From contig CALUWI010000001.1 of assembly GCA_944324465.1 (NCBI GenBank), positions 33,023 to 97,022 of the forward strand: a stretch of 64,000 nucleotides of DNA. The letters are read 5' to 3'. Positions 25,906-31,732 of this stretch are shown here, piece after piece (position 1 is the first letter of the stretch; every line of letters begins with the position of its first letter). The DNA comes from an uncultured Mucispirillum sp. GTDB lineage: Bacteria > Chrysiogenota > Deferribacteres > Deferribacterales > Mucispirillaceae. The notes under the pieces are model-generated. The model was not told where the DNA came from, ran no database searches, and saw only the letters and a list, made by a program, of their open reading frames with translations. The position numbers were made by a program, and so were the translations under genes.

Positions 25906-26011
25906 TGTTATAATTTTACAAAAATAATACAACAATTGATGTTTTTTTGTAGCATATTTAAAATTTTTCTGTTATACTCATTTTAGGGAGTATATTTTGT
26001 TGTATTATTTT
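25906..26011 (+). promoter_or_regulatory. Extended -10 promoter followed by a long nested inverted repeat (candidate structured leader or sRNA)
   Basis: TGTTATAAT 25906-14; perfect 15-bp IR 25921-35 / 25997-26011; inner 7-bp IR 25973-79 / 25988-94. Confidence 0.5.
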
Positions 26012-26095
26012 ACTGCATACCACATTCTATGGACTTTTCAGCAAAATATAATTCTTTATAAATCTGTTTTATATACAACTTAAAAGGAGGACCTT

Positions 26096-26458
26096 ATGGC
26101 TTATAATATTTTATTAGTTGACGATGAGGAAGATATCCGTTTTCTATTTTCTTCAGTTTTAAAAGAAGAAGGCTATAACACTTTTGAAGCATCTAATTCT
26201 GCAGAATGTTTCAAAATATTAGAAACAGAAAAAATAGACCTTTGCCTGCTTGACATTAAATTAAAAGGCGAAAGCGGTATTGATATTCTGCAGCGAATAG
26301 TTAAAGAATATAAAGGAATGAAAACTATCCTTGCCACAGCTTACTCTGCTTATCAAGATGACTTTTCAACATGGAGTGCAGATGGTTACTGGGTAAAATC
26401 TCAGGATACTGACTCTTTAAAAGAAGAAGTAAAAAAAGTGCTTGCTAAGGAAAACTAG
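26096..26458 (+). CDS. Single-domain response regulator (receiver)
   Basis: LLVDDEE, LLDIKL phospho-Asp, TAY, VK motifs; aggagg RBS. Confidence 0.93.
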   Translation: MAYNILLVDDEEDIRFLFSSVLKEEGYNTFEASNSAECFKILETEKIDLCLLDIKLKGESGIDILQRIVKEYKGMKTILATAYSAYQDDFSTWSADGYWVKSQDTDSLKEEVKKVLAKEN

Positions 26459-26550
26459 GCAGTAAGCCAGTTAATTATTCCTAAATAACAGTCTTTAAGT
26501 ATTAGTAAATGCCTTTTTATTACTTTTAAATTAAAGACTTTATTTAATTT

Positions 26551-26741
26551 CAGATTGTCGAAAAAATACATTTTTTCGCCAGTATTTTGCCAGCCTAATA
26601 ATGCTCGCCGCATTTTATTAGGCTGTAAGGGTAACTAAACTTGGATACACGCTCCAAGTTTAGTTAAATAAATTATTTTTTAACATAGATAATATTTCTT
26701 ATTATAAGTTTAAAATAATAAATAACTTTTTTGACAGTCTG
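26551..26741. mobile_element. MITE-like element copy 1 (191 bp)
   Basis: Imperfect TIRs cagattgtcgaaaaa / ttttttgacagtctg; both ends shared in inverted orientation with 29360-29558; internal hairpins 26592-26624 and 26633-26665. Confidence 0.75.
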
Positions 26742-26792
26742 ATTTGTTTAAAAAACAATTTAAAAATAAAGAAATATAAAGGTGGTACAATT

Positions 26793-29294
26793 ATGAAAGC
26801 AGTTGTTATGGCTGGTGGATTTGGAACCAGGATACAGCCCCTCACATCAAGTGTTCCAAAACCAATGATTCCTGTTTACAACAAACCTATGATGGAATAT
26901 ATCATAATGTCACTGCGTGATGCTGGCATTAAAGATATAGCTATCCTTCTCTACTTTAAACCAGAAATAATTAAAGCTCACTTTGGAGATGGTTCTCAGC
27001 TTGGTATTCATATAGAATACTTTACTCCAGATGATGACTATGGCACAGCAGGTGCAGTTAAAAAAGCAGAAAAATTTCTTGATGAACGCTTTATTGTTGT
27101 AAGTGGCGACTTAATTACTGATTTTAATATTCCTGAAATTATTAAATACCATGAAGATAAACACTCAAAAGCTACTATTACACTTACATCTGTTCCTGAC
27201 CCGTTACAATTTGGTGTTGTAATTACTGACAGCGATGGCAAAATAGTCCGCTTTCTTGAAAAACCAGGCTGGGGCGAAGTATTCAGCGACACTATTAATA
27301 CTGGTATTTATGTATTTGAACCAGAAATATTAAACTATATACCAGAAAACAAAAACTTTGACTTTTCAAAAGATTTATTCCCAAGCATTATGGCAAGCGG
27401 AACACATATATATGGATATAATGCAAAAGGATACTGGAGAGATGTAGGCAACCCTGACTCATACAGAACTTCTCTGCTTGAAATTGCCTCAGGCATGATT
27501 AAACTTCCATTTGAAGGCACAAAAGTTACTTTAAATGAAGGCATATTATACCACGGCGAAAACTTTAAAATGGCAGAAGGTGTTGAAATTACTGGCTTAG
27601 TTGTTGTTGGCGATAACTGCTCTTTTGGTGCTAATACAAAAATTTCTGACTGCTGTATGGGAAATGACTGCTCTATTGATGAAAATACTTCTATTTCCAA
27701 ATCTATACTTTGGAATAAAGTAAATATTGGAGCAAACTGCTCTATTACTAATGCAGTTTTCTGCGACAGTGTTCTTGTAGGCAGTAAAGTAAAATGCGAA
27801 CATGGTGTTATTATTGCAGAAGGCACTTCTATTGGCAATAATGTTGTATTTGAAAAAGACATTATGGCATGGCCTAATAAACAGGTGGAAGAAGGCTCTA
27901 TCGTTTCATCTAACCTTATATGGGGCGATAAATGGAAAAACTCTATATTTGAAGGCGGCAAAGTTAGTGCCAGAACAAATATTGAGCTTTCTGCAGATAT
28001 GGCAGCAAAACTTGGTGCAGCTTTTGGCTCACTTTTACCACAAGGCTCTAAAATCCTTACATCAAGGGACTATCATAAAGCATCAAGAATGCTTAAAAGA
28101 GCATTTTTAGGGGGACTGCTTTCTACTGGTGTTAATGCTGTTGATTTAAAAATGGAAGCTCTGCCTGCTATGCGTTATAAACTTTCTACTTTTGGAGAAG
28201 TTGGCGGCGTTCATTTCAGACAATCACCTAGCGACCCTACTCATACAGAAATACTTTTCTTTAATGATGCAGGGGACAGCATAGATTCTGGTGTAGAAAA
28301 AAATCTTGAAAGAGCATTTTTCAGAGAAAATTTCAGACGGGTAACACATAATGAAATAGGCGACATCAATGAAAAACAAATGGTTAAAGAATTCTATATT
28401 GAAGGGCTTTTAAGAAGTATAGACCAAACATCACTTATGGCTAAAAGCACTAAAATTGTTCTTGACCTGCTTAATGGTGTAACAGACCCTATCCTGCCTA
28501 AAATACTTAATAAAGTAGGTATTGATTCTGTTATATTAAATGCAAACCATGATGAGCTTAAACTTTCCCGCTCTGAACATCAGCAGGATGCTGCAATTCA
28601 GCAGGCTGCAAACATTGTTAAAGTATTAAATGCTGATGCTGGCTTTATTGTATTCCCATCTGGCGAACGCTTAACTGTTATTGATGATATGGGCGAAAAA
28701 TTAAACGGCCATAAACTGCTTATGCTTATGCTTTTATTAATAGATAAATCTGTCCTTAAAAAAGTAAAAGTTTATCTGCCAGCTTTTGCTCCTAGTGTGC
28801 TTGATAATAAACTTAAAAATGTAGAAGTTATACACGGCTCATTTACAGGCATTAAAGGTGCATTTTTAAGAGATTACTACTTTACAGGCAATTTAAGAAG
28901 TTTCATCTGCTTTACTGAGCATAACACTACACCTGATGCAATGTATGCTTCATTAAAAATAGTTGAAATGATGAATAAAATAGGCAAACCGCTTTCAGAA
29001 ATAGTTGCAGAAATACCAGAATATAAGTTCTATCACTCAGTAATTAACTGCCCTGTTGAAGTAAAAGGGTTTTTAATGAGAAAAATGAGTGAAGAAGCAA
29101 GAGACAAAGATGCATCTTTCTTAGACGGTATTAAAATACTGCTTGACGGCGGCTGGGCACACATGGTGCCAGACCAGTATTCCCCAAATGTTCATTTATA
29201 CATTGAAGGAAAAACAGAAAAAGCAGGCGATGCAATCCACAAAGAATTTGTTGATAAAATAAATAAATGGATTGCAGAACATGATGCAGAATAA
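26793..29294 (+). CDS. Sugar-1-phosphate nucleotidyltransferase (GDP-mannose pyrophosphorylase-like) with LbH repeats, fused to a phosphohexomutase-like domain
   Basis: MAGGFGTRIQPLT..PKPM, FLEKPGWGEVFSDTINTGIY, hexapeptide repeats, C-terminal PMM-like fold with degenerate metal site. Confidence 0.88.
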   Translation: MKAVVMAGGFGTRIQPLTSSVPKPMIPVYNKPMMEYIIMSLRDAGIKDIAILLYFKPEIIKAHFGDGSQLGIHIEYFTPDDDYGTAGAVKKAEKFLDERFIVVSGDLITDFNIPEIIKYHEDKHSKATITLTSVPDPLQFGVVITDSDGKIVRFLEKPGWGEVFSDTINTGIYVFEPEILNYIPENKNFDFSKDLFPSIMASGTHIYGYNAKGYWRDVGNPDSYRTSLLEIASGMIKLPFEGTKVTLNEGILYHGENFKMAEGVEITGLVVVGDNCSFGANTKISDCCMGNDCSIDENTSISKSILWNKVNIGANCSITNAVFCDSVLVGSKVKCEHGVIIAEGTSIGNNVVFEKDIMAWPNKQVEEGSIVSSNLIWGDKWKNSIFEGGKVSARTNIELSADMAAKLGAAFGSLLPQGSKILTSRDYHKASRMLKRAFLGGLLSTGVNAVDLKMEALPAMRYKLSTFGEVGGVHFRQSPSDPTHTEILFFNDAGDSIDSGVEKNLERAFFRENFRRVTHNEIGDINEKQMVKEFYIEGLLRSIDQTSLMAKSTKIVLDLLNGVTDPILPKILNKVGIDSVILNANHDELKLSRSEHQQDAAIQQAANIVKVLNADAGFIVFPSGERLTVIDDMGEKLNGHKLLMLMLLLIDKSVLKKVKVYLPAFAPSVLDNKLKNVEVIHGSFTGIKGAFLRDYYFTGNLRSFICFTEHNTTPDAMYASLKIVEMMNKIGKPLSEIVAEIPEYKFYHSVINCPVEVKGFLMRKMSEEARDKDASFLDGIKILLDGGWAHMVPDQYSPNVHLYIEGKTEKAGDAIHKEFVDKINKWIAEHDAE

Positions 29295-29302
29295 TTAATA
29301 TA

Positions 29303-29330
29303 TTCCTGTCCCTGAAAAAAGGGGCAGGAA
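29303..29330 (+). terminator. Stem-loop after the nucleotidyltransferase gene
   Basis: ttcctgtccc / ggggcaggaa 10-bp stem with one G-U pair; weak U tail. Confidence 0.5.
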
Positions 29331-29359
29331 ACATCTGTTATATTATAAAATTAGTAATA

Positions 29360-29558
29360 CAGACTGTCAAAAAAGTTATTGATTATTTTTAACTTATAAT
29401 AAGAAATATTATCTGCTATAGCCTAATAAAATGCGACGAGTGTTTTTTACGAGGGCACTTTTTCCCGACTGAATAAGGAGGAAAAAGAAAAAGTGGCTTG
29501 AGAGCATTATTAGGCTCATCAATTGACTGGCGAAAAAATGTATTTTTTCGACAATCTG
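29360..29558. mobile_element. MITE-like element copy 2 (199 bp) with 14-bp target site duplication
   Basis: TIRs cagactgtcaaaaaa / ttttttcgacaatctg; direct repeat taaaattagtaata at 29346-59 and 29559-72. Confidence 0.82.
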
Positions 29559-29644
29559 TAAAATTAGTAATATATAGTAGAATGCCGGTGAAGTAGTGTC
29601 CGGCTTAATTAGTTTTAATATATAAAAACATAAGGAAATATAGA

Positions 29645-31732
29645 ATGAAAAAGTTATATTTAAGTTTATTATGGCATCAGCACCAGCCTTATTATAAAAA
29701 TGACAGTGACGGCAGATTTTATATGCCATGGGTATATCTGCATGCCTTAAAAGACTATTATGAAATGGCTGCCCATGTTGAAAAATCTGGTGTTAAGGCT
29801 GTATTTAACTATGTGCCTTCCCTGCTTATTCAGTTGAAAGAATATACTGATTTTAATGCAGCAGATAATTTCCTTATACTTATGCGTAAACAAGTTGCAT
29901 CACTTACTCAGGAAGAACGCCAGCTTGTTTTAAACCAGTGCTGTATGGCAAATCTTCATACAATGATTAAACCTATTAAAAGGTTTTATGAACTGCATCA
30001 AAAAGTTGTTGCATCAAACGGCAATGCTGCAGATTTTTCAGATGCTGAAATATTAGATTTAGAAGTAGTATATATTCTTTCCTGGTGCGGCGAATATTTA
30101 AGACAGCAGGACGGTCATATACAATACCTTTTAAGCAAAGGCTCATCTTTTACAGAAGAAGATAAAATTGAGCTTTTAAAACATGCTGCAGACTGGGTAT
30201 CAAAAATAGTTGAAATACATAAAAGATTACAGGCAAATAATCAGGCAGAAATATCATGCACTCCTTTTTACCACCCTATTCTGCCTTTACTTATAGATAT
30301 TAATTCTGCAAAAGAAGTATGTCCAGATATGAATATGCCGGTATTTGAAGGCAATTTAGAAGATGATGCTGCATGGCATGTTAGAGAAGGACTTAATGAA
30401 TTTGAACGCCACTTTGGTTTCAGACCAAAAGGAATGTGGCCTGCAGAAGGCAGTGTAAGCCAGAAAGCTGCAGAAATGTTTGCAGGAAACGGCATCAGCT
30501 GGATAGCTACAGATGAAGAAGTTTTAGGCAACAGCCTGCAGATAAATATGAAAGACGGTGCAAACAGATACAGACTGTATCAAAAACATTTTCAAATACA
30601 TAACGGTCAGAAAATAAATATATTTTTTAGAGATAAAATGCTTTCTGACTTAATTGGCTTTACTTATTCATCATGGAATGAAGATGATGCTGTTAATGAT
30701 TTTATGCATCATTTAAGAAACATATATGATTCTGTTGATTTTTCTCCACATGTATCTGTTATATTAGACGGCGAAAATGCATGGGAATATTATAACCAGA
30801 ATGCTTATAACTTTTTTACAAAACTTTATGACAGGCTCACTCACACAGACTGGCTGCAGACTCAGACATTTTCAGAAGTAATAAATAATTATGATGTGCC
30901 AGAAGAAACACTCCATAATATTAAAGCAGGTTCATGGATTATGGGTAACTTTCGTATTTGGATTGGTCATCCTGAAAAAAATAAAGCATGGGAGCTTTTA
31001 AGCAAAACGAAACGCTCTATTGAAAAACATATATCAAATGCAGACGAAGCAGCTGCTGTACAGATTTATAAAGAATACCATGCGGCAGAAGGCAGCGACT
31101 GGTTCTGGTGGTATGGAGATGACCATTTCTCTATACAGGCAGATGTATTTGACAAGCTATTTAGAACTCATCTTGTTAATATATACAGGCTTTTAAAATT
31201 AAATGTGCCGTCAGAGCTTTTTACACCTATAAAAGCTACAAAAAATTCTGGAGTGATAACAAAACCTTCATCTTATGTATGCCCTAAAATAGAAGGTAAA
31301 ATCAGTAACTTTTTTGAATGGCTTGGAGCTGGCGAATTTGACTTAAAATCTGATGCAGGTTCAATGCATGCAGGTGGCGATACTCTGCAGCATATGCTTT
31401 ACGGTTTTGATGATAAAAACCTTTACTTCGCTTTAAAAAGTGATTTTTCATCACTGGAAGATACTGTATGCCAGATAGATGTATCTTTTGATGATAACAA
31501 GAAAACTTTTGAAATAGATTTAGAATGCAAAAAAAGTACATCAGGCGATGTAACTTATGCAATAGACCATATATTAGAAGCATCTATTCCTTTAAAATTA
31601 TTTAAGGGAGCTGAAAAAATATTTTTAGAATTTAAACTGGTAAAAAACGGTCTTGTTATTGAAAAAGCACCTCTTTATAACGCTGTAGAAATAAATATTG
31701 CAGATGATTTTAAAGAGGAATGGATAGTATAA
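29645..31732 (+). CDS. GH57 alpha-amylase/amylopullulanase-like
   Basis: WHQHQPYY, GMWPAEGSV nucleophile, ILDGENAWEYY acid/base, AEGSDWFWW. Confidence 0.92.
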   Translation: MKKLYLSLLWHQHQPYYKNDSDGRFYMPWVYLHALKDYYEMAAHVEKSGVKAVFNYVPSLLIQLKEYTDFNAADNFLILMRKQVASLTQEERQLVLNQCCMANLHTMIKPIKRFYELHQKVVASNGNAADFSDAEILDLEVVYILSWCGEYLRQQDGHIQYLLSKGSSFTEEDKIELLKHAADWVSKIVEIHKRLQANNQAEISCTPFYHPILPLLIDINSAKEVCPDMNMPVFEGNLEDDAAWHVREGLNEFERHFGFRPKGMWPAEGSVSQKAAEMFAGNGISWIATDEEVLGNSLQINMKDGANRYRLYQKHFQIHNGQKINIFFRDKMLSDLIGFTYSSWNEDDAVNDFMHHLRNIYDSVDFSPHVSVILDGENAWEYYNQNAYNFFTKLYDRLTHTDWLQTQTFSEVINNYDVPEETLHNIKAGSWIMGNFRIWIGHPEKNKAWELLSKTKRSIEKHISNADEAAAVQIYKEYHAAEGSDWFWWYGDDHFSIQADVFDKLFRTHLVNIYRLLKLNVPSELFTPIKATKNSGVITKPSSYVCPKIEGKISNFFEWLGAGEFDLKSDAGSMHAGGDTLQHMLYGFDDKNLYFALKSDFSSLEDTVCQIDVSFDDNKKTFEIDLECKKSTSGDVTYAIDHILEASIPLKLFKGAEKIFLEFKLVKNGLVIEKAPLYNAVEINIADDFKEEWIV

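Follow-up and report, generated by a model that had tools for sequence, protein, structure and literature searches.

A probable miniature transposon family in Mucispirillum with hairpin-sized target duplications

Miniature inverted-repeat transposable elements (MITEs) are small non-coding DNA transposons that are mobilised in trans by a transposase encoded elsewhere. In the classical bacterial families, such as Correia elements, RUP and Nezha, target duplications are short, of fixed length and dictated by the parent transposase, and repetitive extragenic palindromic (REP) elements are generally described as having neither terminal inverted repeats nor regular target duplications. Among insertion sequences (IS), the IS1182 family is recorded in ISfinder with duplications of 0 to 60 bp. 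Bacterial MITEs have been reviewed (PMC3184786). Duplication of a whole hairpin has been published for IS1630 of Mycoplasma fermentans, a member of the IS30 family (Calcutt, Lavrrar & Wise 1999, by its title as cited in PMC7648426), whose duplications are given in a secondary citation as 19-26 bp (PMC2853133). For IS1272, of the IS1182 family, stem-loop targets are recognised by shape and not by sequence (Wan et al. 2017, PMC5678879), and in one pathway of the authors' model attack at the 5' feet duplicates the entire stem-loop (PMC5678879). Here we have analysed a 64,000-nucleotide stretch of DNA (the window) from an uncultured Mucispirillum sp. (assembly GCA_944324465.1, contig CALUWI010000001.1, positions 33,023 to 97,022), in which two short, mutually inverted elements bracket a nucleotidyltransferase fusion gene. 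Taken as a whole, the evidence makes it likely that the elements belong to a non-autonomous miniature transposon family seen only in Mucispirillum, that the length of the target duplication is determined by the target and not by the element, and that the two copies in the window are independent insertions specific to this species' lineage, one in each intergenic flank of the gene. No published description of this family was found in the literature. What is new is a MITE family with hairpin-sized target duplications; whole-hairpin duplication is itself already known from a few IS.

Elements 1 and 2 (191 and 199 bp; Table 1) share both ends in inverted orientation, as a preliminary description made from the sequence without database searches had proposed. 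The right-hand ends (26687-26741 versus 29360-29414, 55 nt) are 96% complementary (53/55) and the left-hand ends (26548-26583 versus 29526-29561) 97%, with a core identical at 33/33 positions. In the MITE family a chain of hairpin modules, here lettered A to E, is bounded by imperfect 16-bp terminal inverted repeats with the motif CAGAYTGTCRAAAAAA, reading CAGATTGTCGAAAAAA and CAGACTGTCAAAAAAG at the two tips (13/16 identical). This 16-nt motif occurs four times in the window, solely at the four element ends, against a chance expectation of 0.38, and none of 100 shuffles of the window reached that count. Element 1 contains the AGCCTAATAA/TTATTAGGCT hairpin (module B) together with a perfect hairpin with 14-nt arms at 26632-26645 and 26653-26666 (module D), and folds as single-stranded DNA into three strong hairpins (z = -7.05). 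Element 2 lacks module D and has additional bases within the loop of module B; the preliminary description had seen both differences and put the insert at about 55 bases, which we revise to ~65. Its report of a 14-bp target duplication at element 2 and at most 4 bp at element 1 was accurate, since element 2 is bracketed by the perfect direct repeat TAAAATTAGTAATA and element 1 by ATTT on both sides. There is no open reading frame (ORF) inside either element, and the family as a whole is small (copies of 113-260 bp); the frames of at least 50 aa that touch the elements (26455-26613 and 29409-29729, both on the minus strand) extend into the flanks.

Searched in full by BLAST, the assembly (2.42 Mb, 31 contigs, 32% G+C) yielded ~11 recognisable copies of 113-255 bp with differing modules, plus truncated copies. 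When 40 related genomes were searched, the family was found in 11/12 congeneric genomes, with up to ~20 matches each and mostly at different loci, while other genera gave merely weak matches of 25-38 bp. Together with the genome of this window (G000), the 12 congeners make up the 13 Mucispirillum genomes considered below, and more than 40 copies carry the same tips. When prokaryotes were scanned for an exact pattern, with each species represented by one genome, matches came solely from records titled Mucispirillum. No match was obtained in a plasmid collection, a phage collection or two JGI metagenome scans, and Rfam gave no match within 26000-30000 at E values up to 1. The genome-wide search of the ends that the preliminary description had suggested thus bears out its view of a non-autonomous family with inverted-repeat ends, variable hairpin modules and duplications of variable length.

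We surveyed target duplications at 43 copies with both tips recognisable, drawn from the 13 genomes. At 18 independent sites the flanking direct repeats are 18-38 bp long and each is a terminator-type hairpin; the predicted folding energies of these hairpins lie mostly between -9 and -18.6 kcal/mol, and at most sites the centres of hairpin and duplication lie no more than 1-2 nt apart. About nine sites, in AT-rich DNA with no strong hairpin, show short duplications of 4-9 bp, or 14 bp in the case of element 2. Comparison with relatives checked the duplication at three sites, with lengths of 4 bp, 14 bp and ~30 bp. The element at G000 C3:115816-116007 is flanked on either side by a terminator hairpin, which three relatives have only once at the corresponding site. 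The stem adjacent to the upstream gene is still perfect at this locus (hairpin copies at G000 C3:115786-116037) and the distal copy carries four stem-breaking changes, a decay of the distal copy only that fits selection acting solely on the terminator in use. At hairpin sites the element typically lies 23-64 bp past the 3' end of a gene (14/15). Counted at informative tandem-gene sites, its orientation relative to the upstream gene was split 10 to 3 overall, and 6 to 1 when hairpin sites were taken by themselves, a trend that is not significant.

In a mechanism consistent with these patterns, the target would extrude as a hairpin or cruciform, the transposase would join the two ends of the element to its two feet, and gap repair would then copy the entire stem-loop to either side. 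At a terminator-type hairpin the entire palindrome would then be duplicated (18-38 bp, symmetric about the dyad), and at an AT-rich target with no strong hairpin the same enzyme would make a short stagger and leave a short duplication of 4-9 bp or 14 bp.

The closest described systems resemble the Mucispirillum family in part. The 19-26-bp duplications of IS1630 overlap the 18-38 bp observed here, a comparison drawn from the title of the original study and from secondary citations. However, IS1630 is autonomous and encodes an IS30-type transposase, whereas the MITE is 113-260 bp and non-coding, and its tips are unlike those of the resident IS30-family element, whose duplications are fixed at 14-15 bp and lie at non-hairpin sites. 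IS1272 shares the stem-loop target, and the branch of its model that duplicates the stem-loop corresponds to what is seen for the MITE; documented IS1272 insertions, in contrast, delete the stem-loop and leave no duplication. Mucispirillum also differs in that no transposase with the domains of the IS1182 family was found in the genomes searched, namely DUF772 (13 genomes) or DDE_Tnp_1_6 (5 genomes). The preliminary description had likened the variable duplication length to IS1182-type transposases; the analogy holds for behaviour (palindromic targets and variable length) and fails for the transposase, none having been found in the 13 genomes. Judged by transposase and tips, the MITE belongs to neither the IS30 nor the IS1182 family, even though the behaviour matches both. 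With classical MITEs the family shares small size, lack of coding capacity, multiple intergenic copies, terminal inverted repeats, target duplications and the ability to supply promoter or terminator signals, but its duplications vary from 4 to 38 bp and equal the target hairpin, and its interior consists of separately conserved hairpins, one of them a nested second repeat. Extragenic palindromes beside terminators, mosaic modules and stems kept by compensatory change recall REP elements and bacterial interspersed mosaic elements (BIMEs). These differ from the MITE, which has duplications, and no Mucispirillum protein passes the 80-bit cut-off for the REP-associated tyrosine transposase (RAYT), the sole Y1 transposase seen being an IS200 equivalog.

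Comparison with relatives provided the empty sites that the preliminary description had proposed as a check, for both insertions. The locus is syntenic in 12/12 congeners and neither element is present in any of them; uninterrupted sites were available in six relatives, the closest of which is 96% identical here. The nearest relatives have one copy of ATTT and one copy of the 14-mer at the respective empty sites, and the 4-bp and 14-bp repeats are true target-site duplications. Since synteny extends to all 12 congeners, which lack the elements, the gene is ancestral here, an ordinary resident that was not brought by the elements. An intact duplication of its own flanks each element and a composite-transposon origin is therefore ruled out, so that the earlier suggestion that the pair brackets the gene like a composite transposon has to be abandoned. 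The runs that hold the window are chicken-gut metagenomes. In contigs from four such runs of four separate studies (three DNA, one RNA), all four flank-element junctions were covered in the reference arrangement and no empty-site joint was seen. Both insertions thus look fixed in this species.

The two elements differ in their interiors, and the differences are best read as nested insertion of an independent ~65-bp repeat (module C) in the loop of hairpin B together with deletion of hairpin D. We favour nesting plus deletion over the swapping of cassettes because module C is an independent repeat and because one orthologous insertion, 253 bp long in a species where it includes modules C and D, measures 138 bp in this genome, where it lacks both. 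The idea of the ends as a chassis for interchangeable modules accordingly gives way to a nested repeat with many solo copies, and deletions. Contigs from the chicken-gut runs also contain a form without module D. In an alignment of 24 copies, hairpins B and D are conserved better than the tips, and a few compensatory changes were seen; one stem pair of module D changes from G-C to A-T in 6/24 copies. Module C is present in ~20 solo, tandem and inverted copies in this genome as well as in nested form, in 11/12 congeners (including one nearly without the MITE) and in 0/22 other genera of the phylum. Around its conserved loop, pairing is maintained in at least six different stem sequences, as compensatory variants.

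Some further properties of these modules stand apart from the argument. Module C is a genus-specific structured repeat of 62-70 nt with example sites at 29436-29501 of the window and at G000 C31:2194-2256, C14:31547-31713 and C3:70803-70946. Its loop reads TAAGGAGG on one strand, which is a Shine-Dalgarno sequence in form, and CCTCCTTA on the other, which resembles the 3' end of 16S rRNA. No ORF consistent between copies follows the Shine-Dalgarno-like loop, and Rfam gave no match for the nested copy in the window. One copy of module C interrupts a repeat of a CRISPR array, with a 14-15-bp duplication. Palindromes of 35 bp, in which two MITE terminal repeats meet tip to tip with nothing between, were observed on their own beside terminator hairpins (G000 C6:43233-43267, C6:93771-93805, C7:32524-32558 and C10:99539-99574), one of them with a clear 4-bp duplication (CCTT). 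These may be minimal elements or deletion remnants.

Several observations count against a MITE family of this kind, and most concern the enzyme. No autonomous element with the MITE tips was found in the 13 genomes, where IS interiors are missing from the draft and absence is not proven. The preliminary description had suggested a search for an autonomous IS with the same CAGA(C/T)TGTC ends; none was found in the 13 genomes or in the plasmid, phage and JGI metagenome collections, which have no MITE match at all. Pairing of single-tip matches gave no MITE tip pairs 0.5-3 kb apart, the sole candidate being a chance match inside normal genes. By Pfam search DUF772 (PF05598) is present in 0/13 Mucispirillum genomes, and DDE_Tnp_1_6 (PF13751), DDE_5 (PF13546) and the ISL3 transposase (PF01610) in 0/5 MITE-rich genomes, while DDE_Tnp_1 (PF01609) is represented across the 13 genomes by a single degenerate, unrelated element. 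Among these models are those for IS1182/IS5-, IS701- and ISL3-type transposases, none of which was detected in the genomes searched. None of the resident IS families has tips related to those of the MITE, and in two of them the duplications are of fixed length and not hairpin-sized. In addition, internal hairpins that are better conserved than the tips are unusual for a MITE, and about half of the copies show just short or undetectable duplications.

The resident IS were reconstructed in part from relatives, as several of them are collapsed out of this assembly at contig ends. They comprise an IS256-family element (1449 bp, no target duplication seen at five copies), an IS30-family element (1170 bp, 14-15 bp), an IS481-like element (~1.1 kb, ~25-26 bp in 14/16 copies), an IS3-like element (~1455 bp), an IS1595-like element (~724 bp), a degenerate IS4-like remnant and an IS200 element that sits just after terminator T-tracts. 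The IS30-family, IS481-like, IS3-like, IS1595-like and degenerate IS4-like elements were rejected as parents on their tips, all of which are unrelated. The IS256-family element at the contig ends was considered as a parent, as its tip resembles that of the MITE at 11/16 positions, and was not adopted; its copy numbers across genomes do not track those of the MITE. The DUF772-bearing IS checked in one other Deferribacterales genome (G029) have different ends (TAGTTAGCCCTGAG), IS1182/IS5-type elements of other Deferribacterales have unrelated ends, and a 2.1-kb, 99%-identical four-copy repeat considered as a parent IS is actually a paralogous secreted-protein gene.

Which agent moves the MITE can be asked in several ways. 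A resident IS that makes long duplications might mobilise it across families, either the IS30-family element, which is present in 13/13 genomes and whose 14-15-bp duplications match the length at element 2, or the IS481-like element, whose ~25-26 bp is near the mean of the long MITE duplications. IS1630, the published hairpin duplicator, is itself of the IS30 family, and a motif GATTG(T)CGAAAAA is common to the MITE tip and the interior of the IS30-type inverted repeat. However, the tips differ (GGTAAATTCTAAAAACGATTGC for the IS30-type element, TGTAAGATTATGAG for the IS481-like element and CAGATTGTCG for the MITE); only 8/17 tip-aligned positions match between the IS30-family element and the MITE, and the common motif lies 14 nt inward of the IS30 tip. 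The duplications of both IS are fixed in length at non-hairpin AT-rich sites, and two genomes rich in these IS (G007 and G008) are almost without MITE copies. We regard such cross-mobilisation as unlikely. It appears more improbable still that the elements are REP/BIME-like or IS200-derived palindromes whose single strands are moved not by a DDE enzyme but by a tyrosine transposase of the HUH type, either the IS200 TnpA resident here or a RAYT. The elements are indeed chains of hairpins with stems kept, solo 35-bp palindromes exist, and the abundant IS200-family element itself lies directly after terminator T-tracts. HUH transposition (IS200/IS605, RAYT) is not known to leave a target duplication or to need terminal inverted repeats, whereas the MITE has both, with duplications checked against empty sites; the IS200 ends have no sequence in common with the MITE, and the IS200 protein scores 37 bits against the cut-off of 80 in the model for REP-associated transposases.

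Insertion may alternatively need no dedicated transposase, if template switching or break repair at replication forks stalled at hairpins placed the elements and the duplications were by-products of replication slippage. Hairpin targets can stall replication, duplication lengths vary and a transposase was not found. Against this stand the exact boundaries, formed at more than 40 sites by identical inverted-repeat ends, the clean 4-9-bp duplications at non-hairpin sites and the symmetry of duplications about the dyad; the pattern fits an enzyme that recognises the element ends, and we give this alternative very little credence. Least probable of all is that the gene travels with the inverted copies as a composite transposon, or that recombination between the copies inverts the segment. 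The near-identical 33-bp and 55-bp stretches could recombine, and contigs contain three opposite-strand joints between element interiors. These joints have sides of only 34-43 nt, as expected from other genomic copies with different modules, and look like copies with a different module order. The assembled orientation of the gene is the ancestral one, both elements have an intact duplication pair, which a composite insertion would not produce, and in 13 genomes the 3-kb unit of gene and elements was absent from any other locus. A search of four neighbouring ORFs revealed no recombinase domain. All contig junctions fit the reference orientation, but the short contigs break inside repeats and could not resolve a rare inverted form.

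Within the preferred reading of a transposase-driven MITE family, a more specific proposal is that hairpin-shaped targets are recognised by a transposase outside the families known for such targeting, and that the conserved internal hairpins may be functional cargo. We hold the two parts jointly to be a long shot. One version has an atypical resident IS30-like or IS481-like enzyme, making staggers of 14-15 bp or ~25 bp, act on the unrelated tips. If true, the element would act as a portable cassette, duplicating the terminator on which it lands and carrying an outward -35 box, with module D and the nested module C as cargo.

Other repeats were encountered during the searches. Several derivatives of the IS256-family element, 618-1155 bp long, have lost internal sequence but retain both 26-bp inverted repeats and constitute a second non-autonomous family in the genus (G012 C8:54704-55321, C11:43168-43945 and C8:69398-70107; G009 C16:16486-17640). 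Duplications of 4-15 bp are usually quoted for IS481, and those of the IS481-like element (G007 loci L187-L202, for example G007:C1:72600-75000; ends TGTAAGATTATGAG ... GTTAGTTAAGA) are perfect, ~25-26 bp long in 14/16 copies and situated in AT-rich, non-hairpin DNA. A typical IS30 duplication is 2-3 bp; the resident IS30-family element (NF033563, 206 bits), with its duplications of 14-15 bp, is present in 13/13 Mucispirillum genomes, and was located at G007 L149-L153 and at the start of C16, end of C30 and start of C19 in G000. The IS200-family element, which encodes a 148-aa Y1 transposase, always begins directly past the T-tract of a terminator hairpin and is a second terminator-associated element in the genus (L004:1725-2400 and, in G000, the ends of C3, C4 and C18 and the starts of C26, C28 and C11). 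Four copies of the ~2.1-kb gene, 99% identical, lie outside the window (G000 C1:103279-105485, C15:50211-52413, C25:838-2980 and C10:89564-91636), have a signal-peptide-like start and a common downstream hairpin, and look like a recently amplified or gene-converted secreted-protein family. Arrays of 66-bp period with a 36-bp repeat at contig ends (G000 C22:23350-25499, start of C9, end of C31) look like CRISPR arrays that break the assembly.

Returning to the window, the four ORFs flanking the elements encode by Pfam a ribulose-phosphate epimerase, a response regulator, the transferase fusion protein itself and a GH57 enzyme. The TTGACA of the right-hand tip combines with flanking sequence at each element into a predicted promoter-like site, which we offer as a lead. 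The site at element 1 faces the start of the fusion gene, 34 nt upstream of its ATG, and that at element 2 faces antisense into the 3' end of the gene. These predicted hybrid sites are the two best promoter matches in the region, which overall has no excess of such matches.

Table 1. Features of the two MITE copies and the intervening gene (positions in the window)
Feature	Position	Strand	Basis or remark
Target duplication of element 1, left copy (ATTT)	26547..26550	.	Single ATTT at the uninterrupted site of relatives
Element 1, 191-bp MITE, module order A-B-D-E	26551..26741	+	End comparison, genome copies, folding
Module A: terminal inverted repeat plus its own copy in inverted orientation, a 33-35-bp palindrome	26551..26583	+	Found solo, too, next to terminators at other genomic sites
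Module B hairpin (AGCCTAATAA ... TTATTAGGCT)	26592..26624	+	Sequence, 24-copy alignment, folding
Module D: perfect hairpin, 14-nt arms	26632..26666	+	Best-conserved part of the MITE family
Module E: AT-rich right end closing in inverted repeat; outward TTGACA 5 nt from tip	26687..26741	+	
Promoter-like hybrid site (TTGACA, 17 nt, AACAAT; 10/12)	26731..26759	+	Element 1 tip plus flank; predicted, consensus match
Target duplication of element 1, right copy (ATTT)	26742..26745	.	Empty site of relatives
833-aa nucleotidyltransferase / left-handed beta-helix / phosphohexomutase fusion gene	26793..29294	+	Pfam; syntenic in 12/12 relatives
Promoter-like hybrid site (TTGACA, 17 nt, TATAAT; 12/12)	29342..29370	-	Element 2 tip plus flank; predicted, consensus match
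Target duplication of element 2, left 14-bp copy	29346..29359	.	Direct repeat and empty site of relatives
Element 2, 199-bp MITE, inverted relative to element 1; A-B(C nested)-E, module D missing	29360..29558	-	
Module C, nested ~65-bp copy of independent structured repeat in hairpin B loop; boundaries approximate	29436..29501	-	
Target duplication of element 2, right 14-bp copy	29559..29572	.	Direct repeat and empty site of relatives

Here we have described a MITE family in which a duplication equal to a whole hairpin means that DNA shape, and not sequence, sets the points of strand attack. Few IS are documented with duplications set by shape in this way; the Mucispirillum element, being short and abundant and having matching empty sites and many dated insertions across 13 species, offers a convenient system for study of the mechanism. 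For annotation, the result removes a false lead, as the sugar-nucleotide gene is not mobile cargo, and it also accounts for breaks in Mucispirillum assemblies. Finally, insertion at a terminator that leaves an intact copy beside the upstream gene is nearly harmless to that gene, and this may explain the persistence of the family.

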